IMG/VR virus record: IMGVR_UViG_3300028833_000099
Reading direction: 5' to 3' (one strand)
Source: a virus
Lineage: Duplodnaviria; Heunggongvirae; Uroviricota; Caudoviricetes
DNA: 45,614 bases
Positions 209-45,349 of this stretch are shown here, one piece after another. The translations under genes and the position numbers were made by a program. The first letter of the stretch is position 1. The number at the start of each line of letters is the position of its first letter. The notes under the pieces are model-generated. The model was not told the origin of the DNA. It saw only the letters and a program-made list of their open reading frames with translations, and searched no databases.

Positions 209-289
209 ATCTTTATCTCCTTTTTATTTGTTGTTTGATGGTGCAAAGATACGAAATTATCTCCACACCACCAAATATTTTAAGGGTTT

Positions 290-565
290 TTAACACTCAA
301 AAAGAGTTATTACCTCAACACCAAAATCATATTGGTCAAGAACAGCGTATTCACAATAGGCAATCTGCTCTGCAATTTCTTTTGCGTGTTCACACATAAA
401 CACATTGCCTTGAAACACTTCTTTTAATTTCTCTGCAATGGTGCTGACACAATCCTTATGACGCATATCAATGTGCTCCTCAAAAGCACAAATTGTGCCT
501 TTTGTGTTGTCACCGCCATCTACAAAATAAATGTGATTTATCTTTTTTTCAGTCATAGTCGCCAC
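290..565 (-). CDS. Hypothetical protein
   Basis: ORF track; overlaps stop of upstream gene. Confidence 0.7.
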   Translation of the reverse strand: MATMTEKKINHIYFVDGGDNTKGTICAFEEHIDMRHKDCVSTIAEKLKEVFQGNVFMCEHAKEIAEQIAYCEYAVLDQYDFGVEVITLFEC

Positions 566-923
566 TAATTAAATCTGTTTCAAAAACACACTCTGCAATC
601 AGTTGGTTGCGCTCTGCCCCCTCTGAATCACCTAAGAACTCGTCACCTCCATAAGGGGAAAGATACTCGCCCAATTCGTCAGCGTCATAATCGTTAACGT
701 CAATCTCGTCTTGATACCAATCCTTGATTGTGGTCTTGTCATTCAGACTATCAAGCAACTTCTTTGAGTGTTCCTTACCCTCCATATCCTTAATTTGGAT
801 ATACTCAAAGGTATGGGTATCAATTACACGACAAAACTGACCTTCATCTGGGTCGGTACACGTCCACTCATTCACATCAAAGTGAATAGTTCCGTCTGAA
901 TTGAATTTGTTGTTGAACATCAT
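549..923 (-). CDS. Acidic hypothetical protein (TDPD..Q.CR motif)
   Basis: ORF, AGGAG leader, own promoter. Confidence 0.8.
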   Translation of the reverse strand: MMFNNKFNSDGTIHFDVNEWTCTDPDEGQFCRVIDTHTFEYIQIKDMEGKEHSKKLLDSLNDKTTIKDWYQDEIDVNDYDADELGEYLSPYGGDEFLGDSEGAERNQLIAECVFETDLISGDYD

Positions 924-965
924 AATCTTATCTCCTATTCTTATTATGGTGCAAAGGTACGAAAA

Positions 966-997
966 AATCTCGAAACCACCAAACGATTTCGAGATTT
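966..997 (-). terminator. Hairpin overlapping promoter, likely terminator
   Basis: AATCTCGAAA...TTTCGAGATT inverted repeat. Confidence 0.55.
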
Positions 998-1006
998 TAA
1001 CATATT

Positions 1007-1477
1007 TTAATTATTCATACAAGGTATTTTAATATCAAAATCACTTCTACCAAATCTTGGGGCAATAATTCTCACATACCCTTTTTCTTTTTCAATATAT
1101 TTTTTAAAGAAAGTTCCTCGTTCTTTCAATGCTGCTGACAAAAAACATGAACCTTTATCTTTTGATGAAACATAGAAAGCAGATTGTTCTTTTTTTATAA
1201 GTTTATTGTTTATATCATAAAACCCAATAGTAACTATTACATCGTCATCCCCTAATACTCCATAATCAAAAATGCCACTTTGTGTTACAAGTTTGTAACA
1301 TGGCTCGTTAGAGAAAAAAACGACCATCCCATTCGCATCCTCATAATAATATGATGTGTAACTTTCAGTTCCTTTTAATTCATCGGCATCAAATACCGCT
1401 TTGTTCCAACCATTTTGTGCATTAACACTCAGTACCATTGTCATAAGGCAGACAATAAGCCATAATACTTTCTTCAT
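1007..1477 (-). CDS. Exported hypothetical protein (signal peptide)
   Basis: Start reassigned to MKKVLWLIVCLMTMVLSVNA-Q. Confidence 0.75.
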   Translation of the reverse strand: MKKVLWLIVCLMTMVLSVNAQNGWNKAVFDADELKGTESYTSYYYEDANGMVVFFSNEPCYKLVTQSGIFDYGVLGDDDVIVTIGFYDINNKLIKKEQSAFYVSSKDKGSCFLSAALKERGTFFKKYIEKEKGYVRIIAPRFGRSDFDIKIPCMNN

Positions 1478-1484
1478 AATTCTA

Positions 1485-1736
1485 TTAATATTTAAGTTTA
1501 CTTGCTTTTTCAAACACGTTAATTAACTCTTCTTTGGTGATTGCTTCAAGTGGCTTGTCACTTTTCTCAATATACTTCAAAACCGCTTTCTTACCACGTT
1601 TGTAGCCATTGATAACGTCTCTCGTATATTTCGTGCAAGCACTTGTGTAAAGCCTTTCCTCGTGATGCCTAACATCATTTGTCTCATAGAAATGATTGAA
1701 AATAGGCGCAACTTTCAATTTAACTTCGTAATCCAT
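1485..1736 (-). CDS. Hypothetical protein
   Basis: Start reassigned to MDYEVK, downstream of promoter at 1767. Confidence 0.75.
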   Translation of the reverse strand: MDYEVKLKVAPIFNHFYETNDVRHHEERLYTSACTKYTRDVINGYKRGKKAVLKYIEKSDKPLEAITKEELINVFEKASKLKY

Positions 1737-1798
1737 AATCTTTCTGTTTTTAATTCTTTCGTAATGCAAAGGTACGAAATTATTTTGAACTGGCAAAA

Positions 1799-1825
1799 TA
1801 AAAAGGGGTATATTTCAACCCCTTT
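1799..1825 (-). terminator. Intrinsic terminator
   Basis: AAGGGGT...ACCCCTT with U-tract on minus strand. Confidence 0.65.
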
Positions 1826-1874
1826 AACAAACTTTCACAAATTCAACTCTTTTGGCTACACATCTTCACAGACT

Positions 1875-2534
1875 TTACCAATCTTCTATAAACCTTACAT
1901 TTACAGATGTATCTTTTACCCCTTGGCTTGCAAGGTAATCGTTAATCACTTTTGCCAAACCCTCTTCAAACTGCTTTGGGTCTTTGATGCGCTTGCACTC
2001 CGTAGCGGTGTAAACCTCAAACTTCTCATGGAACTTGTAGGTCTTTCTTACCAACTCAATGAACTCGTCATATTTGCCCTCGGAAAGCAAACCTGCTTCT
2101 GAATGGAAATTAGCGTCAACCAATCTATCTTCAAGCAAGATTTTAATGCGCTTGTCAGCCTTTTGGTGCTCTTTAAGCAACTTCATAAGACTATCATAGC
2201 CATAGGCATAATCGCACTTTTCGTTGGGTTTCTTGACATATTTTTGACGTTCCTCGGCAGTGAAATAGATGGAATCGTCTTTGATGAAATTATCAATACA
2301 CTCCTTGCAGTCTTTGATGTTGCTTGCCCATGCCCCATAGTGCTGCGATGGCTTTTTCTCGCTGCCCTCTTTGCAGAAATCGAAATGAACCTCTTTACTC
2401 TTAGGCCAACTTGAATAACGTGATGGGTCGAACCAACTGCGCTCATACTCAATCTCCGTTACCTTAATAATGCGATAACCATTATAAATCTCTAACGGCT
2501 CTCTGCTTGTCTTGTGTCCACTTCTTACGCTCAT
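1875..2534 (-). CDS. Hypothetical protein
   Basis: 219-aa ORF, ATGA overlap with upstream gene. Confidence 0.8.
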   Translation of the reverse strand: MSVRSGHKTSREPLEIYNGYRIIKVTEIEYERSWFDPSRYSSWPKSKEVHFDFCKEGSEKKPSQHYGAWASNIKDCKECIDNFIKDDSIYFTAEERQKYVKKPNEKCDYAYGYDSLMKLLKEHQKADKRIKILLEDRLVDANFHSEAGLLSEGKYDEFIELVRKTYKFHEKFEVYTATECKRIKDPKQFEEGLAKVINDYLASQGVKDTSVNVRFIEDW

Positions 2535-2770
2535 TTCGCACTCTCCTCTTTCAATGTTTCTAAGTTTCTGTCAATATAGTCCTTAACGGCTTCGAGAGAA
2601 CGGCACACACTATCTTTAACTTTCATGTCACGCTTTGTTGCTCCCCTTGGAATAGTAACATAGAAATCACCATACCAATTATTTCCAATCATGCAGCCAT
2701 ACTGCCAAACATCAATACCCTTGTATCTTCCGCAGTAGTGCTTTTTGTTGTTGTTGAAAAATATTCCCAT
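2531..2770 (-). CDS. Hypothetical protein
   Basis: ORF with leader and promoter. Confidence 0.8.
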   Translation of the reverse strand: MGIFFNNNKKHYCGRYKGIDVWQYGCMIGNNWYGDFYVTIPRGATKRDMKVKDSVCRSLEAVKDYIDRNLETLKEESAK

Positions 2771-2836
2771 ATCTTTATCTCTTTTTGTTTATTGTAATGC
2801 AAAGGTACGAAAAAAAATTGGATTGACCAAATAAAA

Positions 2837-2881
2837 AACCCCAAAATGTCAGGCTTTTAACTTTCCTTAACATTTGGGGTT
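2837..2881 (-). terminator. Intrinsic terminator with TTAA-N6-TTAA in its loop
   Basis: ACCCCAAAATGT...ACATTTGGGGT; homologous to 7396-7439. Confidence 0.7.
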
Positions 2882-2899
2882 CAAAAGGAGAAAAGAATG

Positions 2900-3150
2900 A
2901 GAAAAAACTTAACAAGGTTATGAGGGGTTTGATTTCTTGTGTGGGCAATCCTTATCCTCTCTTTGCGATGGCTACCCAATCCCATCTTTCAACCCAACCT
3001 TGCTATAAGCAAAAGGAGAAACTAATTAGTGGTGGAGTTGCACTTTCCTTACTTGACTTACTGCCAACCTCTTACACAAATGCGCATTGTGCGTAAAACG
3101 ACCTACTCTTACCCTTATACGAGGTTATTTCTCCTTATATTTTTATGCTT
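2900..3150 (-). ncRNA. Candidate structured non-coding RNA or long 3' UTR
   Basis: ORF-free on the coding strand; hairpin GATGGGA/GCCATC; AAGGAGAAA (3127-3135) complementary to TTTCTCCTT (3012-3020). Confidence 0.3.
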
Positions 3151-3546
3151 TTACTTCAACAATCTTTCGATTACTTTTTCGCAGTCCTCAAAATAGCAAT
3201 GATTATTGTAACCACCACGATAATCTTTTTCATTCTTTGCAGTTCTGCAATACATTGGTGCAAGCCAATCTCCATTATTTTTCAAAACAACATGATTTCT
3301 TCCACCACGTCCACAACCATTGCTATAATTGAAATATATATACTTGTCGCTACACTTGATGAAGCCACTCATATCATAGTGACCATACAATGGATTAACA
3401 ACCTCACCATCAAGTGATTTAGCAATTTTCCTCATTGCATTAAAGAAAGCCACTTGAAATGAATGAAATTCCTTTGATACATAACTACCATCGTCCTCTA
3501 AGGTACGACCATTCCACTTTCTGATAAATGCCTTAACGTCTGCCAT
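3151..3546 (-). CDS. Hypothetical protein (GHY..SGF motif)
   Basis: ORF with promoter. Confidence 0.8.
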   Translation of the reverse strand: MADVKAFIRKWNGRTLEDDGSYVSKEFHSFQVAFFNAMRKIAKSLDGEVVNPLYGHYDMSGFIKCSDKYIYFNYSNGCGRGGRNHVVLKNNGDWLAPMYCRTAKNEKDYRGGYNNHCYFEDCEKVIERLLK

Positions 3547-3647
3547 AATTCTAATCTTTAATTGTTTCGTGATGCAAAGGTACGAAAAAAATCTGAATTA
3601 GCCAAGCCTTTTCACACTTTTAACAATTCCTAATTGGCTTTTAATGC

Positions 3648-3887
3648 TTAACGAATACGAATTACCAAAATACCATCATAGACAGAGCAAGAATCCCTTG
3701 TCTCTCCCACCTTCATATCCTTGTAGTTCTCATAGTCGAAGCCATTTGCGTCAAAGTCATCCTCTGTATCAATGGCAATAACGAAAGGCTCACCATCAGT
3801 CCAATTCTCAATTTCCTTTGTGCCAATTGCCACATACTTTGCGTTGATTGTGTTCAACTCTCCGTTCTTCAAAATGTTTTTTTCCAT
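3648..3887 (-). CDS. Hypothetical protein
   Basis: ORF, AGGAG leader, promoter. Confidence 0.8.
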   Translation of the reverse strand: MEKNILKNGELNTINAKYVAIGTKEIENWTDGEPFVIAIDTEDDFDANGFDYENYKDMKVGETRDSCSVYDGILVIRIR

Positions 3888-3949
3888 ATTCTTTATCTCC
3901 TTTTGTTTTACAATGCAAAGGTACGAAAAAAAACTGATATAACCAAATG

Positions 3950-3973
3950 AAAAGGGAGAAAAAATCTCCCTTT
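3950..3973 (-). terminator. Intrinsic terminator
   Basis: AAAGGGAGA-AAAAA-TCTCCCTTT. Confidence 0.7.
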
Positions 3974-3981
3974 AACATTCT

Positions 3982-4701
3982 TTAATCGTCCTCATAGAAA
4001 ATAGCATGGGTTGCATCGAACATAAGATAGTAGTGCCCATTTCCACAATTTCTGTATTCCTCACTATACCAAGCAAGTTTTTCTCCGTCACGATTTGCAA
4101 TCTCAACAGAATTGTCGTAGCCATTCTCCCAACGTCTGTGAAAATTTGTGCCGTTCTTGATACACTCAGCAACTTCTGCGCTCATGCGCTCACGTTCCCA
4201 CTTGCTCCATGCGATAGACTTCCAACATCTTTTTCTCACAAAGGCTTCAAACACTTGATAGCCCCTCACCCAAGAATACTTGCCGTTTTCCTTGTAAACT
4301 TCGTGATAGAACAACTCATACGAATCTGTCATAATGGAGTTCACAAGTTCTCTCTGCTCCGCTTCTGATAGATTAAAGAAATGCTCAATAGACTCTTTGA
4401 TGTCTTTCCAAAGACCACTCTCGTTAAGCATTTTTAAGGCATCTGTGGCACGTTTAACGAAACGCTTGTAGTAATCAATCTCTTCATGCTCGACAAGTTT
4501 CAGTGTCGCCCAATCCTCGTAGTGGTCGCTCCAACTGCTCAGTTCATGACCCCACTTCTTTCTGCCTTTGCTCATGATGGCAATGCGTCCGTCTTCATGT
4601 AGCCACAAGCGAACAATTTTTGAACCGCCAGTGATAAGGTTTACACGATACTGCTTTGCGTGTTTGTTCTTTACGATTTCTCTGATTTCTTGTAATGTCA
4701 T
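3982..4701 (-). CDS. Hypothetical protein (C-terminal WYSEEY..CGNGHYY...DATHA.F.EDD)
   Basis: Start reassigned to MTLQEI after AGGAG leader and promoter. Confidence 0.85.
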   Translation of the reverse strand: MTLQEIREIVKNKHAKQYRVNLITGGSKIVRLWLHEDGRIAIMSKGRKKWGHELSSWSDHYEDWATLKLVEHEEIDYYKRFVKRATDALKMLNESGLWKDIKESIEHFFNLSEAEQRELVNSIMTDSYELFYHEVYKENGKYSWVRGYQVFEAFVRKRCWKSIAWSKWERERMSAEVAECIKNGTNFHRRWENGYDNSVEIANRDGEKLAWYSEEYRNCGNGHYYLMFDATHAIFYEDD

Positions 4702-4786
4702 AATTCTTATCTCCTTTTGTTTTACAATGCAAAGGTACGAAAAAAACCTGATATAGCCAAATTTGTTAACACATTTTAATAAAAAA

Positions 4787-4816
4787 GTGGATGCAATTCG
4801 AAAAAATCGCACCCAC
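4787..4816 (-). terminator. Intrinsic terminator
   Basis: Minus-strand GTGGGTGC...GCATCCAC with G-U pair, then U-tract. Confidence 0.7.
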
Positions 4817-4835
4817 GCAAAACAAAAAGAATAGA

Positions 4836-5252
4836 TTATGTATGTTTCTCAATCAAATCCCTAAACATAAAGGGATATGCGCTATTCTTCTTCTGGTCAG
4901 CAATCATTTTCTCAAAGTTTTTCTTCACATACTTTGAAAGAATGTCGTTTACACGCTCATCATACTTGAACTGGGGAATGACAATCTGTGCGTTGGTTTT
5001 GCCCCTTGCGCCTTGTGTTGCCCTACGTATAAACTTCAACTGCCAAGGAAGATTATATTTCTCTTTGAGAATGCTCTCCACGATGCCAATGATGCTTGCA
5101 CCGCTATCCTTGAAATATGCCTTGCACATCTGATAGTTGGTGAGCAGACTCTCATTCTTCTGATACATTGAATATACCTTATTTGCCTTGTCTTTGGCAT
5201 AATTGGAAATGGCTTGCGCTTCCAATGCTTTACGTACCTTACTATTACTCAT
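4836..5252 (-). CDS. Hypothetical protein
   Basis: ORF with promoter. Confidence 0.8.
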   Translation of the reverse strand: MSNSKVRKALEAQAISNYAKDKANKVYSMYQKNESLLTNYQMCKAYFKDSGASIIGIVESILKEKYNLPWQLKFIRRATQGARGKTNAQIVIPQFKYDERVNDILSKYVKKNFEKMIADQKKNSAYPFMFRDLIEKHT

Positions 5253-5347
5253 ATTCTAATCTTTTATTTGTTTCGTGATGCAAAGGTACGAAAAAAAATT
5301 GGAATAGCCAAATAAAATACAGATTTTTTTTTTTCAAAAAAAATAAA

Positions 5348-5377
5348 TGGGAACAAACCTCCCCAAGTTCGTTCCCA
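5348..5377 (-). terminator. Intrinsic terminator
   Basis: TGGGAAC...GTTCCCA with long U-tract on minus strand. Confidence 0.6.
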
Positions 5378-5493
5378 ATCAATTTGAAAAGGTTTTTCTT
5401 CCTTATTATCAAAAGCGTTCCTCATTCACTTTTGATGGTCTTCCACTTCTTTGCAAAGATATAAAAAATCAATTTGAAAACCAAATATAAATA

Positions 5494-5958
5494 TTATTGG
5501 TTTGTGATTTTCTCCAACTCTTCGTCTGAAATTTTTATCTTATCAAACATTGGCTTATATTTCAAGCACTCTTCGTATGCCTTTTTCAACTTTGGGAGAT
5601 TTACATTAGTTTCCCACCAAAGATAGAAAACAATATCATCATAGAGTTTCTGCAAGTCTTTCGTGAACATATCTTCAAGTTCAACTTTATGGATAATCTG
5701 CCCACTTCCAACTCTATAGCAGATTGGATAGCGCATAAAATACCAACCTCCCTCGCTTTTCTCTACTGAATAATCATAACGACCCCAGCAATCAATGAAG
5801 AGATACTTTTTAGTTATTGCATGGTAGTTACGTCCATCATCACCTATTGTAGGTGTGCTTCCACGCTGCTTGATGTAGGCTTCAGAAAAGGTAAATTTCT
5901 TGTTGCCTATAATTCTGCGAATATTGTCTAAAAGTTCTTGTTTTTTTACTATATTCAT
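5494..5958 (-). CDS. Hypothetical protein
   Basis: ORF, AGGAG leader, promoter. Confidence 0.8.
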   Translation of the reverse strand: MNIVKKQELLDNIRRIIGNKKFTFSEAYIKQRGSTPTIGDDGRNYHAITKKYLFIDCWGRYDYSVEKSEGGWYFMRYPICYRVGSGQIIHKVELEDMFTKDLQKLYDDIVFYLWWETNVNLPKLKKAYEECLKYKPMFDKIKISDEELEKITNQ

Positions 5959-6001
5959 ATCTCAATCTCCTTTTTATTTCGTGTTGCAAAGGTACGAAAA
6001 A

Positions 6002-6029
6002 AACGTGAACTGACCAAACAATTCACGTT
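6002..6029 (-). terminator. Terminator overlapping the -33 element
   Basis: AACGTGAA...TTCACGTT then U-tract. Confidence 0.6.
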
Positions 6030-6037
6030 AATTTTTG

Positions 6038-6451
6038 TTAATCCCATTCAGCAATATACTTATCTGTCTCGTTGTCGTAGATGTTCACTTGAGGACACTT
6101 TGCACTTCTATAGAACTCTGCTGCCTTTTTAAGAGCAATGACTTCATTGTCTGTATCAATATGCTTGGCGGTTTCTTCAATCACATCACCATTCTCATTC
6201 AACTCATAGCAATGCACAGAATAACGTGCTTCAAGTGATTTGATATACTTCGTTACGTTTCTGTTAACGTCATGGATAACACCATCGCCCATTGTGGCAC
6301 AATAACGCTCTATATGGTTGTTTACTTCGTCCTCATGAACACCAGCATCAATGTCCATTGACTCCCATACAAGGGCATGAATGAAATTCTTGAAAGCCTT
6401 TTTAACTTTTTCGTAGTCTTCGTAATTCTCTTTAATTCTAATCTTATCCAT
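6038..6451 (-). CDS. Hypothetical protein
   Basis: ORF, AGGAG leader. Confidence 0.8.
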   Translation of the reverse strand: MDKIRIKENYEDYEKVKKAFKNFIHALVWESMDIDAGVHEDEVNNHIERYCATMGDGVIHDVNRNVTKYIKSLEARYSVHCYELNENGDVIEETAKHIDTDNEVIALKKAAEFYRSAKCPQVNIYDNETDKYIAEWD

Positions 6452-7326: not shown

Positions 7327-7395
7327 AATTTTTATCTCCTTTTATTTTTTCTTGATGCAAAGGTACGAAATTTTTTTGAATTGACAAAATAAAAA

Positions 7396-7439
7396 GACCA
7401 CAAATGCTGGGATTTTAACTTTCCTTAACATTTGCGGTC
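7396..7439 (-). terminator. Intrinsic terminator with TTAA-N6-TTAA in its loop
   Basis: Minus-strand GACCGCAAATG...CATTTGTGGTC (G-U pair), U-tract. Confidence 0.7.
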
Positions 7440-8872: not shown

Positions 8873-9013
8873 TTAGGAATTATTTTCCAATTTTTTTGAT
8901 AGTTCCCTTGTCTCCATCTTCTTTATTTTTCTTCTTAATTTGTTATTGTCGTGTATAAGCATGAAAACAATACACATCTGGACAACAGATAAAAATGCTA
9001 TTAACTCTTCCAT
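8873..9013 (-). CDS. Small membrane-anchored protein, 46 aa (MEELIAFLSVV...)
   Basis: Manual translation. Confidence 0.55.
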   Translation of the reverse strand: MEELIAFLSVVQMCIVFMLIHDNNKLRRKIKKMETRELSKKLENNS

Positions 9014-10168: not shown

Positions 10169-10253
10169 CTGTTGCAAAGGTACGAAATCTTTTTGAATTG
10201 ACCAAATCTTTCGGCAAATTTTAACTTCGTTTAACCTTTGGAAAGTGCGCAAA

Positions 10254-10427: not shown

Positions 10428-10546
10428 AATTCTTTGTCTTTTTACTTAATTACCAATTGTTTATTTATCTTTCGTGATGCAAAGGTACGAAAAAAAATTG
10501 GATTGACCAAATTATTCCGTGATTTTTTTCAGATTTTAACGTTTAT

Positions 10547-10780
10547 TTACCAATTACCTTGCTGGTTTTCAATAAATTCAACCGTTTCAATCGTTTCCTT
10601 GATGTCCGCTTCCAACTTATCATCGTCAATGTCAGAGAAATCATCGTCTCTGTCAGAACGATAGTCATTAAGCGTTTTGCCATAGAGTTCGCATACAAAC
10701 TCTCCGTTCTCTGTAACGTCAAGTCCGCTTGTTGTCTCTCTGACTTGATAGCCTAACTCTGTCTCGTATGTACTACCCAT
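10547..10780 (-). CDS. Acidic hypothetical protein
   Basis: ORF track. Confidence 0.75.
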   Translation of the reverse strand: MGSTYETELGYQVRETTSGLDVTENGEFVCELYGKTLNDYRSDRDDDFSDIDDDKLEADIKETIETVEFIENQQGNW

Positions 10781-11571: not shown

Positions 11572-11692
11572 AGTTTTAATATCCTATTTTTTAATGTTAA
11601 ACTTATTGTTATTTCTTTTGTGATGCAAAGGTACGAAAAAATTTTGAATCTACCAAATAATTTCTTATAAAAATCAGGCTCTTTAACCCTTT

Positions 11693-12148
11693 TTAACAAA
11701 TGAGTTCTGATATTGTTGTGAAATCACGCATATAATAAATGTTATCTGCATTGTCTCCATCTTCAAAATATGAACTTTGCAGCCATTCTGAAAGGGTTAT
11801 TCCAATAAGGTGCTTGTTCTCAAAACGCACCCATACTTCATAGGTTTTTTCCTCAATGGTGAAATATGCAACGTAGCAGCCATTACCCTCTCTATCGAAA
11901 TAACGACTATTGATTTTGATGTCAAACACCCTCAGTGTTTCTAAAGGTGTGTCACCCTCTCCCAATGTTATTTTGTTTTTTATACCAATGGTGGCATAAA
12001 CCCCACAAGGAGCAATATCTTCTCTCTTATCGGTATCATGGTAGAGAATGTCCTCAACCACTTTTTTTACCATAGTATTACCATAGAAAGGGTTTTTGCT
12101 CCCATTTCTTGCTTCGGTCATTTCAACTCTTAACTTTGCTTCTACCAT
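11693..12148 (-). CDS. Hypothetical protein
   Basis: Start reassigned to MVEAKL after AGGAG leader. Confidence 0.8.
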   Translation of the reverse strand: MVEAKLRVEMTEARNGSKNPFYGNTMVKKVVEDILYHDTDKREDIAPCGVYATIGIKNKITLGEGDTPLETLRVFDIKINSRYFDREGNGCYVAYFTIEEKTYEVWVRFENKHLIGITLSEWLQSSYFEDGDNADNIYYMRDFTTISELIC

Positions 12149-12246
12149 ATCTTTATCTCCTATTGTTTTATTGTGGTGCAAATGTACGAAATTATTTTGA
12201 ATTAACCAAATATTTTTTGGAAAATCTCTGGGGCTTTAACCTTTTT

Positions 12247-12729
12247 TTAGAATTCGTGGAAATTTTCTTTCGTTTTGCTCATTTTCCACACACCATCTTC
12301 AAAAAGGTAATTATATTGCCCATATATAGTTTCATATACCTTATTAAATGAGCCTTGAATTGGTTTGATGTTGCGCCATTTGTCTGTGTTTCTGTTAGCA
12401 TAATGAGCAACATGACCGCTTGCAATTCCGCTACAGAAGCCGCCAACTAACAAGTTAAGGGCAGTCTCATAGTCGTTAAAATGCTCTTTAAGGGTCTCTC
12501 CTACACTATCAGGATAACCATCCCAATGGCAATAAATACCAATGTACTCACCTTTGAGCGTTACCATCCTACAAAGGTCTTTACCTCGTTTGTCGAACCA
12601 TACTTTCCCATTTTCATCTGTCTCTATCCACTCTTTAAGCGGAATTGGCAGTTTGGTAGGGTCGAATTTTATTTTGCGTCCTACGTCCTCTTTGCGGACT
12701 TTAAGGATAATTCTTGATGGTGTACTCAT
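12247..12729 (-). CDS. Conserved phage protein, MST.S...YCHWDGYP family
   Basis: Motif IYCHWDGYP; own promoter. Confidence 0.8.
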   Translation of the reverse strand: MSTPSRIILKVRKEDVGRKIKFDPTKLPIPLKEWIETDENGKVWFDKRGKDLCRMVTLKGEYIGIYCHWDGYPDSVGETLKEHFNDYETALNLLVGGFCSGIASGHVAHYANRNTDKWRNIKPIQGSFNKVYETIYGQYNYLFEDGVWKMSKTKENFHEF

Positions 12730-12837
12730 AATTTACTATTTTATTTGTTGTTTGTTGATGCAAAGGTACGAAATTATTTTGAATTGACAAAATATTACTT
12801 GAAAAAAATCTGGTTTGTTAACAATTATTAACAAAAA

Positions 12838-13093: not shown

Positions 13094-13414
13094 TTATTCT
13101 TTAGGTTTAACTTCCACACCATCTTTATATAGTGTGTTAAATGCCATAAGCACATGAATCACTGTGATTTCCTCTTTGTCACTAATCTCACCAACATACT
13201 CTATTACTGCATCAGATAACTCTTTGCTATCCTTAACCGCTTTTAACTGCGGATAAATCATATCAAAGCGGTGTCCTCTGTAACTCTCGCAAACCGCATG
13301 ACCATCGTAGATGTCAAAAGGAATGGCTTTCTTAAAACCCTCTATATTAAGATTTTCAGAGCAGACCTTTTTCCCATAGAATTTTTCCCAAATTTTACTT
13401 TCGTTGTTATTCAT
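13094..13414 (-). CDS. Hypothetical protein
   Basis: ORF with promoter. Confidence 0.75.
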   Translation of the reverse strand: MNNNESKIWEKFYGKKVCSENLNIEGFKKAIPFDIYDGHAVCESYRGHRFDMIYPQLKAVKDSKELSDAVIEYVGEISDKEEITVIHVLMAFNTLYKDGVEVKPKE

Positions 13415-13462
13415 TTTTCTAATTATTTATTGTTTAACTTTAGCAAAGATATAAAAAAAAAG

Positions 13463-13489: not shown

Positions 13490-13531
13490 ACTTCTGTTAA
13501 AAAAGATTAAAAAAGGAAGGATTTCGGACTT

Positions 13532-14837: not shown

Positions 14838-14977
14838 TTCTTTATTCTCCTTTTTTATTGTTAGACAATTTGTTTATCTCTTTCGTGATGCAAAGGTACG
14901 AAATTATTTTGAATTAGCCAAACAAAAATCAAATTATTTTCAATTTATAATAATTTTTTTCTGAATTATTTACAAAA

Positions 14978-15678: not shown

Positions 15679-15732
15679 AATTTTTTTCTTTGATGCAAAT
15701 ATACGAAATTATTTTGAGATAACAAAATAAAA

Positions 15733-15755: not shown

Positions 15756-15770
15756 CCTATTTTTTAACAT

Positions 15771-16871: not shown

Positions 16872-17008
16872 AGTCTAAATCTCCTTTTAAATTAATAATG
16901 TTGTTTATCTCTTTCGTGTTGCAAAGGTACGAAATTATTTTCAATCTACCAAACAAAAAATAAATTATTTTCAATTTATAATAGTTTTTTTCTCATTTCT
17001 TGACAAAA

Positions 17009-17840: not shown

Positions 17841-17991
17841 AATCACTTCATTCTTTAATTCCGCTGCAAAGGTACGAAAAAAAATTCATTCCACCAAATA
17901 AAAACAGAATTATTTTCAATTTATAATAATTTTTTCTTTTTATATATTATAATAAGGTGAAAATAATTTTTTGAAAATAATTCCTTCAAAA

Positions 17992-21153: not shown

Positions 21154-21234
21154 ATATACTATATATTATAATGCAAATATATGAAAAATTTTTCAATTAG
21201 CAAAATATATTAATCTTTTTTAATGATATTTACT

Positions 21235-27309: not shown

Positions 27310-27382
27310 AATGCAAATGTATAAAAAAAAATACCCAAAAGCAAAAACTCTTAGGTATTTTATAGTTATTTAACTTTTTTCT

Positions 27383-27851: not shown

Positions 27852-28121
27852 CTATTGTTTAAATTCGTTTAATATGTCGCATGCTTCTTCTATTGCTTTT
27901 ACAGCCTCTCTGTTGTGGCAATATTTAAGTTTTAACATTTTTACTTTTGGCACAAGCCATCCGTATTCATATAACATATCTTTCTCCGCTTGGTGGTAGC
28001 CTTTAGTATAAGCTACTCTTTGGATTCTAGCCTCTGAATTTTCCAAACCATCAACAGTAGGAACACCAGTTGCCTTCCAATCTGGATATAACATTTTTGC
28101 TAAATCTTCTGCTTTACTCAT
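27852..28121 (-). CDS. Hypothetical protein (Y.KGYHQAEKD motif)
   Basis: ORF, AGGAG leader. Confidence 0.75.
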   Translation of the reverse strand: MSKAEDLAKMLYPDWKATGVPTVDGLENSEARIQRVAYTKGYHQAEKDMLYEYGWLVPKVKMLKLKYCHNREAVKAIEEACDILNEFKQ

Positions 28122-36510: not shown

Positions 36511-36605
36511 AACATTTATAAAATCAATTCTATTATTATTTTTTGCAAATATACGAAAAATAATTTAAATAACCAAAATATTTATAGAAAATTAACATAT
36601 AGCCA

Positions 36606-39109: not shown

Positions 39110-39177
39110 ACCATTTGAATGTTTTCTCCATTAGCTGATATGCTGATACTACTACACCAACGACTGTTATAATGGTA

Positions 39178-39486: not shown

Positions 39487-39526
39487 ATTGCAAATATACG
39501 AAAAATAAATGTAATATCCAAATTAT

Positions 39527-39922
39527 TTAAGATTTTTTTTCGATTAATAGTGTCATGGTATATTCTCCAGTTTTCTCAGTATCTGTATAGCCATTTTTAT
39601 TTTTCACTATTAACGATTTAAGAATTCCATCAACGGTAGCACCTAAAAGATTTGGAGAGCCACTCAAAAGGAGTTTGCATATAACGTTTTCTTCCTTTAT
39701 TGGTGTTTCCTCTACATTTTCCCTAGGAATAAGGTCAGTGGCTAGTACAAAGTATTTCGTGAGGTTTTCTCTTTGTTCGTCATTTAAAGGGATACCATTC
39801 AACGCTTTTTTATAGTCTTCATACAAGCGATTAATGGCGTTTTGAATCTCTGTGGGTTTTGCCTTGGTTGCTACCACTGATTTAACTGCCATACCATTAT
39901 TTTCCATTAACATATTATCCAA
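39527..39922 (-). CDS. Hypothetical protein
   Basis: ORF track. Confidence 0.75.
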   Translation of the reverse strand: MDNMLMENNGMAVKSVVATKAKPTEIQNAINRLYEDYKKALNGIPLNDEQRENLTKYFVLATDLIPRENVEETPIKEENVICKLLLSGSPNLLGATVDGILKSLIVKNKNGYTDTEKTGEYTMTLLIEKKS

Positions 39923-40469
39923 GAAGAGTTTTTCTGATTATGTTACCGTCAACGTTAGGATACTTTGCCTTAACCTTCGGAACAATCTGACCCATATCTC
40001 TCATAGATGGGACATAACCCTCTTCCTTGGTGGCGATATATGCAGCAATCACCTCTTTGGTAAAGTTAACGATGTCTTCCTCAGTAGGCTGTGCTGGAGT
40101 GAATTCCTCAATCACCTTGAGTTCCGCTGACTCACTATCATAGAGTTTGGTATTACCGCTTTTGAGGTATCCCTCCATTGTTTCCTTATGGTTGTTAGCG
40201 AGTTTAATGAGAACTTTAACTTCCTCATTCTCAAGCATTTTATACTCAAGATTCGTATGATTTTTCTCATTCTCCCTAATGAGTTCTGACTTAATGAGTT
40301 TAAGCGCACCATTTCTACTCTTAAGGTTCATTTCCTCAAACAGTTCCTCTGGTGTCTTATCCTCGTTCTTAATTGTTGCTATGGGAGCAAGTTTCTCTGT
40401 AGTCTTTGCTATAGACTCGTCAATCTTTTTAAGGATTGATATTTCATATTCTTTAGTATTTGTATTCAT
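39915..40469 (-). CDS. yqeY: GatB/YqeY domain protein
   Basis: E..VL.K...HKETMEGY..SG......E.AEL.VIEEF.P.Q.TEE.I, MRDMGQI...VK...DG; start reassigned to MNTNTK. Confidence 0.75.
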   Translation of the reverse strand: MNTNTKEYEISILKKIDESIAKTTEKLAPIATIKNEDKTPEELFEEMNLKSRNGALKLIKSELIRENEKNHTNLEYKMLENEEVKVLIKLANNHKETMEGYLKSGNTKLYDSESAELKVIEEFTPAQPTEEDIVNFTKEVIAAYIATKEEGYVPSMRDMGQIVPKVKAKYPNVDGNIIRKTLLG

Positions 40470-40512
40470 ATTTATGTTTTTTTTAAGTAGCAATATAAAA
40501 GTTAATACCATT

Positions 40513-40722
40513 TTATTTGGACTGTTTTGCACCAAGCGCAAAACCTCCAATTATGCCCCAACTATACACCATAGATAATGCAATAGTCATTCTAGTGTTA
40601 TCTTCAAGTTTATCCATAAAAGATGGGTCAAAACAATACCAGATTACTATTGCAAAATTTGCAATTAAAAGTATTTTAATTATTATGTCTGCTATTTTTT
40701 GGTGTATATTTTTTTTGCCCAT
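40513..40722 (-). CDS. Small two-TM membrane protein
   Basis: Two hydrophobic segments. Confidence 0.7.
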   Translation of the reverse strand: MGKKNIHQKIADIIIKILLIANFAIVIWYCFDPSFMDKLEDNTRMTIALSMVYSWGIIGGFALGAKQSK

Positions 40723-40724
40723 AA

Positions 40725-41765
40725 TTAAATTCCGTTATTGATTCTAATTATTGCAGAAACGGTCATTCTAATCAATGACTCCAAATCCCTATAGTCGCAT
40801 ACTTCCACTTGTGTGTGCATGTTTCTGTTAGGGATTGAAAGCAAGAGTGTATCACAGTCCTCAGAAGATTGTTTAATGTGGACTGTATCTGTTCCACCGC
40901 TTCCAACTGAAAACTCTTGGTAAGGGATTTTATTTGTTTCGCACACTTCTTTCAACAGTCGTGTAAGTTTTCTATTGCTATCCACACCGTGAGAAATTGC
41001 GCCACCCTTTCCAAGTTTGATGTCACCCCATTCATTAGGGCTTACATAATCATCGTCGGTTGCGAATGTTACGTCATAATCAATAGAATACTGTGGGTTG
41101 ATTTTAGTTGCAGCACCGACAGCCCCACTTGCTGACGTTTCTTCTTGTGTGCAAGCCACTCCATACACTTTGACATTCTGGAGATTGAGATTCTTCAGTT
41201 GCTTCATCACCTCTGCCATAACATAGACACCGACCTTATCGTCAAGTCCACGTCCAGCGAAACGATTAGCACCTAACTCAAGAGGGATGTCACAAATTGT
41301 GATGGGGTCTCCAATTGAGATAAGTTTATTTGCTTCTTCTTTGGTCTCAGCACCAATGTCAATTTTCATATCCTTGACCTTGATAGCCTTATCCTTATCG
41401 TCTGTATAATATTCGATATGAATTGGTGTCTTACCAATTACTCCATTCACAATACCTTTGGCAGTGTGTATGGCTACGGTTGAGCCAGGTAATACCTTTG
41501 CGTCTGTTCCTCCATCTTTGATGAAATGTACAAATCCTTTATCATCAATATGTTGAACTTGAAGACCTATTTCGTCAATATGCGCTGAAAGCATAATGAC
41601 AATATTACCATTGCCAACTGAGAAAGCAGCGTTACCAACTTTGTCGGTGAATTCATACTTTACGCCACATTCCTCTAAATAGTCTTTTACGATTTTTGTC
41701 GCATGTTCCTCATAGCCACTAGGACTAGGTGCTTGAAGCAGATTTTTCAAAAAGGTTTTATTCAT
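40725..41765 (-). CDS. M42 family metallo-aminopeptidase (TET/FrvX-like)
   Basis: PSPSGYE, AHIDEIG, GRGLDDKVG, QEE, GGTD, RNMHT. Confidence 0.92.
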   Translation of the reverse strand: MNKTFLKNLLQAPSPSGYEEHATKIVKDYLEECGVKYEFTDKVGNAAFSVGNGNIVIMLSAHIDEIGLQVQHIDDKGFVHFIKDGGTDAKVLPGSTVAIHTAKGIVNGVIGKTPIHIEYYTDDKDKAIKVKDMKIDIGAETKEEANKLISIGDPITICDIPLELGANRFAGRGLDDKVGVYVMAEVMKQLKNLNLQNVKVYGVACTQEETSASGAVGAATKINPQYSIDYDVTFATDDDYVSPNEWGDIKLGKGGAISHGVDSNRKLTRLLKEVCETNKIPYQEFSVGSGGTDTVHIKQSSEDCDTLLLSIPNRNMHTQVEVCDYRDLESLIRMTVSAIIRINNGI

Positions 41766-42198
41766 TGATACAATACAAATTTAAATTTTCTAAAACATTT
41801 TTAACTTTCTTATTACCTCTATCACCAAATTCTCTCATCATTTTCATAGTTCTTAACCACATATCTGGACCTAAATACATTCTCACTTGTCCTGGAATTT
41901 TAGTATAGTTTTTAAGGAGAAAATATCTCCACAACTGTATTCTTTCAAAAGCAATATTACATTCTCCATCTAAACATTTGTGAATATTTTCTCTTTTCTC
42001 AAAGAAAGCAGTTAATCCAGTTAGCATAAAGAAATTTTCAATTGCGTCATCGAATATGCCTTCTTTAATAAAGCCATCATTATACAGAATGTGCATACAT
42101 TTATTTTCTTTGCAGAATTCTATAAAAAGTTTATATAACCAATATGACTTTTGAGAAAAAATTGGCTTTTTGGCAAATTTAGTATTATCCAAAAACAT
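41758..42198 (-). CDS. Hypothetical protein
   Basis: ORF track. Confidence 0.7.
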   Translation of the reverse strand: MFLDNTKFAKKPIFSQKSYWLYKLFIEFCKENKCMHILYNDGFIKEGIFDDAIENFFMLTGLTAFFEKRENIHKCLDGECNIAFERIQLWRYFLLKNYTKIPGQVRMYLGPDMWLRTMKMMREFGDRGNKKVKNVLENLNLYCINE

Positions 42199-43045
42199 CT
42201 TTAAATGGTTTTATGTTTCCATTTGGATTATGTTCACCGTTTGTAGATGACAAATCAATTATGGCAAAATGTATTACCTTAAACAACCCTTGATATTTTT
42301 CAGATGCAAGAACATCAGCAAAGAATTTAGCCATTTCCTCTGGAGGTGTTCCATATGCACCGCATCCGAAAGCACTAAGAACCAATGAATCATTGCCGTT
42401 TGAGAGGGCAATATCCAATATCTGTCTTATTTTATTTTTTATGACGGTTTCAACCCAAGGAACTATTTTGCCGTTTTCAGTCTTAGGATTCTTTACCGCT
42501 GGAAGAGTAATAATGTCCACATAGAACGGCTCTTCCATTAGTTTATAATCGGCATCGTCACTTTCCTTAAAGACAATGACACGAGGACTATAGATTCCCC
42601 CATAGTTATAGTCAAGTGGGTATCTTTCTTCTTTCTGTTCTACTCCAAAATCTTTTCCAATGTCGTGGAATTGATATAATGACTTAAAGAGATTTGTCCG
42701 TCTAAATAGGTTTTCCTCTTGCGCTGACGAACCTCTTGTAACACCACCTCCAGGAGTATGGAATGATGCCATATTGAGAACCGCTGGTCTCAAGTCATTG
42801 TCAATCATTTTTTTAGCCTCATAGAGGCAGTCATTGTTGACTACTTTAATTTCGGTTTCGTATCTAGGACGCTCCGTATAGTCAGCCCTAATCTTTTTAT
42901 TGTAGAACCTAGTACCATGTACCATGTAGTCATCTAATCCATCAATATGAATTTCGTTGCCATTTATTGTGTAAAAACCCTTATTACATAATGCAACTGT
43001 GTTTTCATATTCTTCTATTCTTTCTTGTTTATTCATCGTGTTCAA
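42185..43045 (-). CDS. TIGR02452 / DUF2263 family macrodomain, bacterial-type PARG-like ADP-ribose glycohydrolase
   Basis: LNMAS..PGGGV..GSSAQEE.LFRRT, IYSP.V, LSAFGCGAYG.PP. Confidence 0.88.
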   Translation of the reverse strand: MNTMNKQERIEEYENTVALCNKGFYTINGNEIHIDGLDDYMVHGTRFYNKKIRADYTERPRYETEIKVVNNDCLYEAKKMIDNDLRPAVLNMASFHTPGGGVTRGSSAQEENLFRRTNLFKSLYQFHDIGKDFGVEQKEERYPLDYNYGGIYSPRVIVFKESDDADYKLMEEPFYVDIITLPAVKNPKTENGKIVPWVETVIKNKIRQILDIALSNGNDSLVLSAFGCGAYGTPPEEMAKFFADVLASEKYQGLFKVIHFAIIDLSSTNGEHNPNGNIKPFKDVFG

Positions 43046-43202
43046 GACGGAATTTATAGTCTAAAATCATAGACTGATTTTTAGTTATTTCTTTACGATA
43101 GTTCTCAGCGTTTGCCTTGTCTTTTATAGCTTTTTCTAAAAGAATGGTATTTGCTGAGACCAATTTATTAATTGCTTCGCTTAAAACATTTTTTGATGCC
43201 AT
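43029..43202 (-). CDS. Small coiled-coil protein
   Basis: Start reassigned to MASKNV after promoter. Confidence 0.7.
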   Translation of the reverse strand: MASKNVLSEAINKLVSANTILLEKAIKDKANAENYRKEITKNQSMILDYKFRLEHDE

Positions 43203-43281
43203 GATATTATATTTTTTGTTTATTGCAAATATATGAAAAAAAATCTGTATTACCAAAATGATTGGCAAAAATACAGATTTT

Positions 43282-43647
43282 TTAACATAAATTATTTTCT
43301 ATATGATTATTCAAAACATTAAATTCGTTTTTTATTTCCGTCAAATCTGTTTGAATTAACGGTAATTTGGTTTCAATAATTGCTTTTAACTGGTCAAGAT
43401 TTTTCAAAAGGGTTTGGTTTTCCTTATATAATTGGGCATTATCTTCCAAGAGCTTATTAATGTCAATTCGCTCTCTGCCTTTTATTGCCTCATTATGGTT
43501 TTTTTCCCATAAGTTAACAAGGTCTAGTTCTTGTTTGATAATGTATCCAAGTTCTAGGATTAACTGTTTATCCTTTCTACTTGCAGCATTAGCGTTTAAT
43601 TCAGATAATATATCTATACACCTACTTAAATCTTTTCCGTTAATCAT
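43282..43647 (-). CDS. Coiled-coil hypothetical protein
   Basis: ORF track. Confidence 0.7.
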   Translation of the reverse strand: MINGKDLSRCIDILSELNANAASRKDKQLILELGYIIKQELDLVNLWEKNHNEAIKGRERIDINKLLEDNAQLYKENQTLLKNLDQLKAIIETKLPLIQTDLTEIKNEFNVLNNHIENNLC

Positions 43648-43648
43648 A

Positions 43649-43858
43649 TTACAAGCCTTTATAAATTCCTCTATTTAACAATCTTTCCATTTCTATTGAA
43701 AAATAGTTCAATTGGTTTTCTGTGAGGTTATATATCCAATCATTAGCATAGTGTTGATAATGATTGACGTTGTTCACTTTGAATCTCCATAAGAGATATG
43801 TTTCTAATGATTTATCCATACATTTAATCGTAATATTCGTCATATCCATTATATCCAT
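43649..43858 (-). CDS. Hypothetical protein
   Basis: ORF track. Confidence 0.7.
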   Translation of the reverse strand: MDIMDMTNITIKCMDKSLETYLLWRFKVNNVNHYQHYANDWIYNLTENQLNYFSIEMERLLNRGIYKGL

Positions 43859-44402
43859 ATGGATTATATTGACTTGGATAAGATGAACTACATGATGTTT
43901 TATTTTTACTTAAAACAGCTGTTTTAAGTTTAGTTTTAAGCTCATGACATATTGGTTTAATTACATCACCATTGTATTCTAGTTTAGGAATGATGATTCG
44001 ATGGAGTATTTCGCCAGTTTTGACATTTGTAAGAGTCATTTCTTCCTCATTCCAATCAACGTCATATTTAGCAAGAATTTCCAATGCACGTTTTTTCTCA
44101 AGAGGTGTGCATACTGTCCACCAGCTATCTTCACAAATAGTATCAATAGTTTTTTCGCACGGCTTATTTTGGCTAGCAATTTCAAGAACGGGTTGGTATC
44201 CCCATCCAACTCCATTGTCTAAGTTACTGCAATACTTCCAAGAATCATAGTATGCAGCCAATGAAAGTTTCTTTGTATATTGAAATTCTGGTGCTAAGTC
44301 AACACCCTCAAATATGCCAAATGCGAATCTAGTGTTGTCGTTTGTACTGCTATATGCGCTATATTTAATGAAATCGCCTTTGTTAAATGTTTTTTTCTCC
44401 AT
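43824..44402 (-). CDS. Hypothetical protein
   Basis: ORF track. Confidence 0.8.
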   Translation of the reverse strand: MEKKTFNKGDFIKYSAYSSTNDNTRFAFGIFEGVDLAPEFQYTKKLSLAAYYDSWKYCSNLDNGVGWGYQPVLEIASQNKPCEKTIDTICEDSWWTVCTPLEKKRALEILAKYDVDWNEEEMTLTNVKTGEILHRIIIPKLEYNGDVIKPICHELKTKLKTAVLSKNKTSCSSSYPSQYNPYGYNGYDEYYD

Positions 44403-45018
44403 CTGTATATAAATTGAATTTTTTTATTATTCCAAATACTTGTTCATTGACATAAGGAATTGGATTCATGCCTTTGCTTATCATGGCTCTGACTAGCGTT
44501 GATGATGCATCCATCCTCTGCGTTTTTATGTACCAAAAGCCGATATTTGTCAAATCATGTCTGTATCCTTCTTGTATTATGAATGGCACTTTATCATTAT
44601 CAATTTCCGTACCATCATTTCTTTTCGCCTCAATGAAACCTACTTTATTTTTAATGTCGGTTTCAAACTTTCTCCATTGAGTAACGGCATCAATTGTGTC
44701 ACTACCACAAATTATGAATAATTCATCATTTGGATAAGTTTCACGAATTTTCTCCAATACTTTATAAGAATATGTAGGAGGCTCGATGTCTTTCTCTAAT
44801 GTGCAGACTTTGCATTTATCACCAAATGCCCCTATTGATGCTGTTATCATTTCACAGCGTAATTCAAATGGTGCTGGTTCGTGTTTCTTCCAAGGATTAT
44901 GTTTTGCGACAACAAATAACACCTTATCACATAGTCCACCGTTAATTGCGCAAGAGGCAATATTAACATGTGCTATATGTATTGGGTCAAATGAGCCAAG
45001 TAGCAATCCTATTTTCAT
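44383..45018 (-). CDS. nadD: Nicotinate/nicotinamide-nucleotide adenylyltransferase
   Basis: GSFDPIH.AH, NPWK, SY..L..I...YP.DELFIICGSD, SST.VR. Confidence 0.88.
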   Translation of the reverse strand: MKIGLLLGSFDPIHIAHVNIASCAINGGLCDKVLFVVAKHNPWKKHEPAPFELRCEMITASIGAFGDKCKVCTLEKDIEPPTYSYKVLEKIRETYPNDELFIICGSDTIDAVTQWRKFETDIKNKVGFIEAKRNDGTEIDNDKVPFIIQEGYRHDLTNIGFWYIKTQRMDASSTLVRAMISKGMNPIPYVNEQVFGIIKKFNLYTDGEKNI

Positions 45019-45283
45019 AGTTATCACTTGTTAATGCGTCAAAAATGTCAGCACCGCAAGCAGCCCCAATGCTAAACAAATAGTAAATAGGCCACCCCAA
45101 AGCGCCATATATGGCTAATTTTTCTTTATTTTTGAGCAGATAGACGTATAGTTTTTCATCAACAATTCCATATTTGTATGTGGAATAATTTTTGTAATCA
45201 CTTATTTCGTCTTTAATGATGCTTTTTGTAACGGCATACATTATAGCGTATACTGTCAATATGATAGCGAAAATTAAAATCAT
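44987..45283 (-). CDS. Membrane hypothetical protein
   Basis: Two hydrophobic segments; promoter upstream. Confidence 0.7.
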   Translation of the reverse strand: MILIFAIILTVYAIMYAVTKSIIKDEISDYKNYSTYKYGIVDEKLYVYLLKNKEKLAIYGALGWPIYYLFSIGAACGADIFDALTSDNYENRIATWLI

Positions 45284-45349
45284 TATCTTTTTTTTGCAAA
45301 TATATGAAAAAAAAATTAATTAACCAAGATTTTTAAGGTTTTTTTATCT

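Follow-up and report, generated by a model that had tools for sequence, protein, structure and literature searches.

Promoters and upstream boxes in the window

The primary sigma factor and the core promoter of Bacteroidota are both unusual, and little has been written on the region upstream of their -33 box. We investigated this region in a 45,614-nucleotide stretch of DNA from a virus of the class Caudoviricetes (IMG/VR record IMGVR_UViG_3300028833_000099; "the window" hereafter means this whole stretch), in which the motif TTAA-N6-TTAA recurs upstream of promoters. The window is AT-rich, with a GC fraction of ~0.31–0.39, and nearly all of its genes lie on the minus strand, which carries ~30 near-identical promoters of the Bacteroidota sigma-A type. 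Each comprises a -33 box TTTG(G), a 20-nt spacer ending in a T-run, and a -7 box TAnnTTTG, often in the form TTTCGTACCTTTGCA. Transcription-start mapping in Flavobacterium psychrophilum places TAnnTTTG at -12 to -5 (PMC9723704), which puts the -33 TTTG at -36 to -33, and the positions of the TTAA cores relative to the start given below derive from the same assignment.

The nearest record to the window is an IMG/VR phage genome of 295,155 bp that has direct repeats at its termini (hereafter G001), and whose segment 140,531–187,708 aligns with the window at ~99% identity; all of G001 was used for a genome-wide motif scan. A megablast search of the INPHARED phage collection with the window as query gave no match, and a PHROG scan of ten larger proteins returned no informative names. 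Promoters were defined by a strict regular expression (TT[TG][GT]-N20-TAnnTTTG in G001), so that some chance intragenic matches are included and weaker promoters are missed. G001 contained 116 matches to this expression, and its -33/-7 spacing was 20 nt in 82 cases, 19 nt in 26 and 21 nt in 6.

The window contained 15 perfect copies of TTAA-N6-TTAA, compared with 5.62 ± 2.37 expected, and none of 100 dinucleotide shuffles of the whole window reached 15. Twelve of the 15, the same 12 that were listed in a preliminary description of this DNA made from the sequence alone, lie just upstream of the Bacteroidota-type promoters. For promoter-linked counts, the upstream regions were shuffled separately: 12 copies were present within 70 nt upstream of 32 window promoters versus 0.7 ± 0.8 in the shuffles, and 39 promoter-linked copies were present in G001 versus 3.0 ± 1.7. 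The pentamer GTTAA occurred 61 times upstream of G001 promoters (20.0 ± 4.5 in shuffles), and GTTAAAA was the most enriched 7-mer there (10.5-fold), with 30 copies against 8 of its complement. Alignment of 27 in-phase pairs on the gene strand gave the consensus a-n-t-r-TTAAA-n-a-a-w-g-TTAA-a-a-w-a. The motif is therefore an oriented head-to-tail direct repeat of (G/A)TTAAA, which can be written rTTAAA-N4-GTTAAA(A), with a 10-bp period; the spacing of adjacent TTAA cores was 10 bp in 39 cases and 11 bp in 4. The symmetric dyad proposed in the preliminary description does not survive this analysis, since the flanks of the two cores run head to tail and GTTAAAA far outnumbers its complement. Boxes were borne by 45 of the 116 G001 promoters (39%), in the TACCTTTGCA-type class of phage promoters as well as in the TATATTTGC-type class, and no conservation was seen outside the boxes in the promoter-linked copies.

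These features bear on two kinds of site that resemble the motif. A tyrosine-recombinase core had been mentioned in the preliminary description as a less likely reading, on the grounds that TAA-N6-TTA lies at the centre of dif-type sites. A dif/XerCD site is expected once or a few times per genome, with conserved 11-bp arms around a 6–8 bp centre; the boxes instead occur in dozens per genome (~40; 39 promoter-linked copies in G001), are always oriented with the promoter, lack conserved flanking arms, and recur at host RNA-gene promoters. Direct repeats bound by PhoB/OmpR-type response regulators are expected at 11-bp spacing and in place of the -35/-33 box, whereas here the spacing is 10 bp, the TTTG is intact at its fixed 20-nt spacing from -7 in all cases, and the boxes stand at transfer RNA (tRNA) genes, transfer-messenger RNA (tmRNA) genes and dozens of phage promoters. 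That the boxes are either response-regulator sites or a recombinase core is exceedingly improbable, and for the window the motif amounts to ordinary promoter architecture, with neither a phage-specific switch nor a recombination site.

Helical phasing of the boxes

Distances in the window were measured from the C of the -7 box (read on the plus strand) to the first T of the motif. They fall at 36 (five sites), 45–46 (four sites) and 56–57 (nine sites), with exceptions of 41 at position 6028 and 53 at position 13497, exactly as previously described. In G001, GTTAA started at -9 (9 cases), -19 (18), -29/-30 (19) and -40 (4) relative to the T of the -33 TTTG, with almost none between. When one proximal box was taken per promoter, 45 of 48 were in phase (±1) versus 8.7 expected (Rayleigh p ~1e-16), so that the genome-wide scan against shuffled AT-matched controls, which the preliminary description had proposed as a check, came out significant. 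The vector strength was 0.88–0.89 at 10–10.5 bp for one box per promoter and 0.84 at a period of 10 for all GTTAA. The 48 box-bearing upstream regions formed 47 clusters at 60% identity, and the phasing was unchanged with one promoter per cluster; the phasing was therefore not inherited through recent duplication, and duplication was ruled out as its source. Relative to the start, the TTAA cores of the successive classes lie at -44 to -41 and -54 to -51, at -54 to -51 and -64 to -61, and at about -65 to -62 and -75 to -72.

Phasing by whole turns holds for most copies but is not absolute. Nine of the 39 G001 pairs (for example those at 146601, 200256, 204107, 230063 and others), and site 6028 in the window, belong to an inverted class located at -23/-24, a half turn (5 bp) off. 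These are the same motif flipped, reading TTAAC-N5-TTAAC at -23/-13 on the gene strand, and the coordinates of the G:C pair next to TTAA (-9 and -19) are identical in the two orientations. TTAAC at -13 was also found in unrelated phages, in 14 cases.

A motif oriented with the promoters and located at whole helical turns from the core is the pattern expected of a factor that shares the helix face of RNA polymerase. The preliminary description had likened it to sites of CRP-type activators, and part of that comparison holds, since the boxes are tied to promoters, oriented, and at whole turns from the -33/-7 core; the symmetric dimer dyad and the dedicated regulon do not. As at class I CRP-dependent promoters, activity would by analogy be expected only at whole helical turns. 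Unlike CRP/FNR sites, which are two-fold symmetric over 22 bp, the boxes have asymmetric flanks and form a direct repeat; they are present at constitutive RNA-gene promoters and are not confined to a regulon, occurring at 45 of 116 phage promoters, in unrelated phages and at host RNA genes. The pair centres, at about -47.5, -57.5 and -68, also differ from those of class I CRP sites (-61.5, -71.5 and -82.5).

Terminator hairpins and the distance classes

The distance classes differ in the hairpins that accompany them. In the -9 class of G001 the boxes adjoin -33, with no hairpin at this place in any of ten promoters. Stems of 4 bp or more enclose -33 in 16 of the 19 promoters that make up the -19 class, where the 3' T-run of the enclosing hairpin doubles as the -33/-7 spacer, so that its 5' arm fills the extra turn. 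In the -29/-30 class a stem encloses -33 in 8 of 15 promoters, and a whole hairpin lies between the boxes and -33 in 5 of 15. The phage overlaps terminators with promoters, shifting the boxes upstream by whole turns. The same gaps recur at host promoters that lack hairpins; the quantisation therefore belongs to the element and not to the hairpins. A signal acting at the RNA level was rejected, because the boxes lie variously before, after or inside terminator hairpins.

The overlap can be seen at individual sites, where the terminator of one gene coincides with the promoter of the next and the -33 TTTG(G) lies in the loop of a terminator-like hairpin. Such sites include 952–1010 of the window, the promoters with -7 boxes at 5994–5987 and 43233–43226, and positions 132875, 237238 and 273048 of G001. 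Stop codons also fall within the boxes, as had been noted before: open reading frames end at 290, 1007, 3982, 11693 and 43282, each inside a half-site.

T4-type early promoters and their promoter-early stem-loop (PeSL) cassettes, reportedly described by Arbiol et al. in 2010, offer a close likeness. In both systems a hyperplastic region contains many small early-type genes, each served by a strong, near-identical promoter of host type, with A-rich elements upstream and a stem-loop next to it. The repeated layout of promoter and stem-loop between small genes was found here at ~30 window promoters, with -33 enclosed in 16 of the 19 promoters at -19. The phylum and promoter type differ from those of T4, the hairpin here often encloses -33, and the upstream element is a GTTAA pair.

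Occurrence in other phages and in host chromosomes

To examine the breadth of the element, the pattern GTTAA-N5-GTTAA-N{4,25}-TTTG-N20-TAnnTTTG was scanned against IMG/VR and against prokaryotes with one genome per species; counts from both scans are samples, and those given are minimum values among the matches listed. At least 116 stretches of IMG/VR were matched, on contigs of 4 to 412 kb, and the gap was 4 (28), 13–15 (36) or 24–25 (68) in 132 of the 135 matches listed. At least 98 of the matched viral loci had no blastn similarity to G001. In 127 non-seed promoters of those 98 loci, GTTAA was located at -40 (14), -29/-30 (22), -19/-18 (10), -9/-8 (7) and elsewhere (10), so that 53 of 63 occurrences were in phase. 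ATTAA showed no phasing in 193 non-seed viral promoters (vector strength 0.09), which indicates that the 5' G matters. In the unrelated 47-kb Bacteroides fragilis phage B124-14, one intergenic promoter is preceded by three boxes, at -9, -19 and -28. The first 50 kb of crAss001 contained few host-type promoters and no phased GTTAA boxes.

The same phased motif, which the preliminary description had suggested seeking at host promoters, is present in Bacteroidota at genes for tRNA, tmRNA and FopS small RNAs (sRNAs). Nearly all of the host matches listed were from Bacteroidota (Bacteroidales, Flavobacteriales, Sphingobacteriales and Chitinophagales), including Prevotellaceae, Muribaculaceae, Bacteroidaceae, Porphyromonadaceae, Flavobacteriaceae, Sphingobacteriaceae, Saprospiraceae and Chitinophagales. 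The gaps among all host matches listed were again 4 (24), 13–15 (38) and 24–25 (34), with scattered other gaps often in non-Bacteroidota records, and single GTTAA boxes upstream of strict promoters in five host genomes peaked at the same gaps. Rfam searches identified tRNA genes, tmRNA and FopS sRNAs directly downstream of box-bearing host promoters. In five orthologous tRNA-operon promoters from different metagenome-assembled genomes (MAGs), no columns upstream of the -33 region were invariant except the two GTTAA boxes. The two boxes were likewise the only invariant upstream columns of the FopS promoters, whose copies are distinguished by an 11-nt indel between the boxes and -33. On these alignments, the invariant boxes qualify as a phylogenetic footprint.

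Phased boxes in unrelated phages and in host chromosomes show that the element is not specific to this phage; it most likely belongs to the host transcription system. A phage-encoded activator or repressor that times phage genes would be consistent with the boxes being ~3–10 times commoner at phage than at host promoters. Such a regulator is highly improbable, given that these phased boxes are also found in unrelated phages that differ greatly in size and at conserved host RNA-gene promoters, and that they stand at both promoter classes of the phage. The Pho box, the recombinase core and a phage-specific regulator were all considered and rejected.

As a side observation, Alloprevotella MAGs contain a multi-copy element of ~100 nt, in which GTTAAC-N4-GTTAAC adjoins a -33/-7 promoter and a conserved leader able to form a hairpin comes next. 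It was found on many contigs of the same genomes (loci L170, L171, L181, L183, L189, L190, L197, L204, L207, L208, L234 and L235).

Candidate binding factors

The identity of the binding protein, and activation of transcription by its binding, are inferred here from sequence. We lean towards a reading in which the boxes are a phylum-wide UP-type promoter module bound by the C-terminal domains of the RNA polymerase alpha subunits. The host holoenzyme would first recognise the -33 TTTG and -7 TAnnTTTG core, after which two flexibly tethered alpha C-terminal domains would dock on both boxes on the same helix face and raise polymerase recruitment, as at E. coli rrn and phage early promoters. The boxes would work on one face only, and their distances would be quantised as a result; where a terminator hairpin lies between the boxes and -33, or around -33, the boxes would stand one or two turns further up, giving pairs at ~-54/-44, -64/-54 and -75/-65. 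The phage would use the element heavily for its many small, individually promoted genes.

The UP element of E. coli rrnB P1 and other strong promoters, a site for the alpha C-terminal domain, is said to have been described by Ross in 1993 and by Estrem in 1998 and 1999. Its proximal and distal subsites span -46 to -38 and -57 to -47. UP regions with A- and T-tracts alternating at ~10 bp were found in most bacteria in a 2025 survey (PMC12641261). The boxes share several properties with the E. coli element, being A/T-rich, directly upstream of the -35 equivalent, arranged as two subsites one turn apart on one helix face (10-bp core spacing in 39 cases versus 11 bp in 4; vector strength 0.84–0.89), and present at both stable-RNA promoters (tRNA, tmRNA, FopS) and strong promoters of many phages of the same host group. 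The usual UP location of ~-40 to -60 is occupied by the closest class (distance 36) only, whose cores at -44 to -41 and -54 to -51 fall inside the E. coli proximal and distal subsites. The core promoter differs from that of E. coli, being of the -33/-7 type. A Prevotellaceae RpoA retains the residues of the alpha "265 determinant", namely R265, N268, C269, N294, G296, K298 and S299 in E. coli numbering; this retention of the DNA-binding residues is permissive evidence that the polymerase is equipped for UP-type contacts. The interdomain linker of the Prevotellaceae RpoA (L283) is 7 residues longer than that of E. coli RpoA (L316), and judging from this comparison the alpha domains perhaps have a longer reach. 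Structures of Bacteroidota-like RNA polymerases have been solved (9n9p and 8dkc).

UP elements, phased upstream A-tracts and T4-type early promoter cassettes are all known kinds of element. A search of the literature for a Bacteroidota UP element or a GTTAA motif yielded general statements only. The widely used B. fragilis phage promoter P_BfP1E6 is said, in a 2025 preprint (10.1101/2025.03.18.644028, citing Whitaker et al. 2017, Cell), to contain "UP elements". It resembles the present case in being a strong Bacteroides phage promoter so described, and another B. fragilis phage, B124-14, bears three phased GTTAA boxes at one promoter; the sequence of P_BfP1E6 was not found in a literature search. 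The literature covered, which did not include Whitaker et al. 2017, contained no description of a GTTAAA consensus, of strict quantisation from ~-45 to -76, of an inverted half-turn class, or of conserved occurrence at host tRNA, tmRNA and FopS genes.

Several observations weigh against the alpha-domain reading. The boxes are crisp, oriented (G/A)TTAAA sequences with an invariant TTAA, a preferred 5' G and an A-rich 3' side, a sharper consensus than the degenerate A- and T-tracts of known UP elements. The alpha C-terminal domain is not known to recognise a G. Most phage pairs (-64/-54 and -75/-65, extending to ~-75) lie one or two turns above classical UP elements, and the inverted half-turn class (9 of 39 in G001, and TTAAC at -13 elsewhere) is not explained. 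When tRNA promoters of two host genomes were taken regardless of the motif, only 1 of 21 had the boxes, and phased GTTAA was present at ~3–15% of strict host promoters compared with 39% in the phage; the low host share looks more like a regulon than a general feature of the polymerase. The tRNA result lowered our confidence in docking by the alpha domains and raised that in a dedicated factor.

Such a factor, a DNA-binding activator conserved across Bacteroidota that contacts RNA polymerase on the same face and whose site phages copy to capture it, is the main, though tentative, alternative. Candidates would be a Fis-like or class-I-type factor, or a two-helix-turn-helix or tandem-binding protein. 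It would suit the high-information, oriented consensus with its preferred G, and the fact that the boxes, though borne by a minority of host promoters, are consistently present at particular ones in different genera (one tRNA operon, tmRNA and FopS sRNAs). By analogy, box positions up to ~-75 would be in keeping with class I activators, and the orientation-dependent phase would recall asymmetric activators such as MarA. FopS promoters are, according to a published remark (PMC11697453), possibly boosted by some regulator. No candidate protein was identified, and the element occurs in all sampled orders of the phylum and at ~40% of phage promoters, so that a dedicated factor would need to be both universal and abundant. 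The register of the boxes is also that of the UP subsites and of the generic A-tracts in box-less tRNA promoters.

Those A-tracts lie at -19 to -12 (A fraction up to 0.95, at -15) and -6 to -1 (up to 0.86, at -5) of box-less host tRNA promoters, relative to the -33 TTTG, and share coordinates with the A's of the boxes. The boxes look like a sharpened form of this general phased A-tract pattern, or like a separate site superimposed on it. The tracts invite an explanation by DNA shape, in which T2A3–5 tracts every 10 bp bend the upstream DNA around RNA polymerase without base-specific recognition. Rotation-dependent activation of promoters by curved upstream DNA is established, as at Alu156 of the B. 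subtilis phage SP82 and plc of C. perfringens, and both the A-rich 3' flank of each TTAA and the strict 10-bp repeat would agree with it, as would the phased A-tracts of ordinary host promoters. Bending has no need of an invariant TTAA, a preferred G, or exact-base conservation in host orthologues while neighbouring A/T positions drift, and in the known cases it overlaps the alpha-domain mechanism; as a separate explanation it is unlikely.

It is possible, if somewhat doubtful, that the boxes are docking sites either of a phylum-wide Bacteroidota activator or of a phylum-specific, sequence-reading mode of the longer-linker alpha C-terminal domain. The factor would boost a defined set of stable-RNA and sRNA promoters, and its site would have been copied by most Bacteroidota phages as a means of taking over host transcription, the inverted class being a second binding geometry.

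A short, well-defined upstream element with quantised positions, common to hosts and their phages, would explain the strength of phage promoters in Bacteroides and help to predict promoters in the genomes of Bacteroidota and of their phages. It would also supply a simple design rule for expression tools in gut commensals, namely a pair of GTTAAA boxes placed at -45/-55 or shifted upstream from there by one or two turns, and a clean system for studying the reach and helix face of the alpha domains or of a new activator.

Individual sites in the window

The promoter-linked TTAA and GTTAA sites listed here are all on the minus strand. At distance 36, the pair at 280–293 has its boxes at about -54 to -51 and -44 to -41, with -33 at 275–272, -7 at 251–244, and the TAA stop codon (292–290) of the upstream gene in the distal box. 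The pair at 4766–4779 (-33 at 4761–4758, -7 at 4737–4730) has a terminator upstream of the boxes, and that at 21210–21223 (-33 at 21205–21202, -7 at 21181–21174) consists of two ATTAA boxes. One-mismatch pairs at this distance are 36582–36595 (-7 at 36553–36546) and 45333–45346 (-7 at 45304–45297), the latter with TTGG as its -33 box.

At distance 45, the pair at 997–1010 (-33 at 983–980, -7 at 959–952) has a stop codon in the distal box and a hairpin, CTCGAAA/TTTCGAG, that encloses -33, and the one-mismatch pair at 3620–3633 (-7 at 3582–3575) has TTGG at -33. The pair at 10221–10234 (-33 at 10206–10203, -7 at 10182–10175) and the one-mismatch pair at 27360–27373 (-7 at 27321–27314) are at distance 46.

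Three sites are at distance 56: the pair at 3972–3985 (-33 at 3947–3944, -7 at 3923–3916), with a stop codon in the distal box and a hairpin between the boxes and -33; the one-mismatch pair at 10536–10549 (-7 at 10487–10480), whose proximal GTTAA is intact; and the one-mismatch pair at 43282–43295 (-7 at 43233–43226), with the stop codon of the upstream gene in the proximal box. Distance 57 is shared by the remaining phased pairs. At 2857–2870 (-33 at 2831–2828, -7 at 2807–2800) a terminator-like hairpin carries the boxes in its loop, as does a hairpin at 7415–7428 (-33 at 7389–7386, -7 at 7365–7358). A stop codon falls in the distal box at 11683–11696 (-33 at 11657–11654, -7 at 11633–11626), and a terminator precedes the boxes at 12818–12831 (-33 at 12792–12789, -7 at 12768–12761). 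A one-mismatch pair is at 12236–12249 (-7 at 12186–12179), and the weak copy at 1824–1837 (-7 at 1774–1767) has an intact proximal GTTAA, a degenerate distal box, and a small hairpin between the box and -33.

Two further sites depart from the whole-turn classes. The pair at 6028–6041 is inverted, with TTAAC-N5-TTAAC as its gene-strand sequence, and its distance of 41 puts it half a turn out of phase; its -33 is at 6018–6015 and its -7 at 5994–5987. The perfect TTAA-N6-TTAA at 13497–13510 (distance 53; -7 at 13451–13444) is out of phase, and its flanks do not match the GTTAA consensus. A site absent from the preliminary description, at 15764–15768, is a single GTTAA box two to three turns upstream of a promoter with -7 at 15703–15696, followed by a terminator hairpin. 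The three other perfect copies (4424–4437, 13233–13246 and 27859–27872) lie inside coding regions with no promoter near; they fit chance and are not part of the element.

Several window promoters have another upstream motif, ATTATAAATTGAAAATAATT, in place of the GTTAA boxes, its G lying about -19 relative to the -33 TTTG. It occurs at 14932–14943, 16963–16974, 17908–17919 and 8878–8890 on the minus strand and at 17971–17982 on the plus strand, and may represent either a variant of the box or another kind of site. GAAAA was enriched at -19 and -40 in other phages.

Bacteroidota mRNAs are said in PMC6847099 to be without Shine-Dalgarno-like sequences. In the window, a strong Shine-Dalgarno-like AGGAGA was present 7–9 nt before the ATG in 10 of 28 promoter-proximal genes, those on the minus strand starting at 208, 923, 3887, 4701, 5958, 7326, 8803, 12148, 14837 and 16871.

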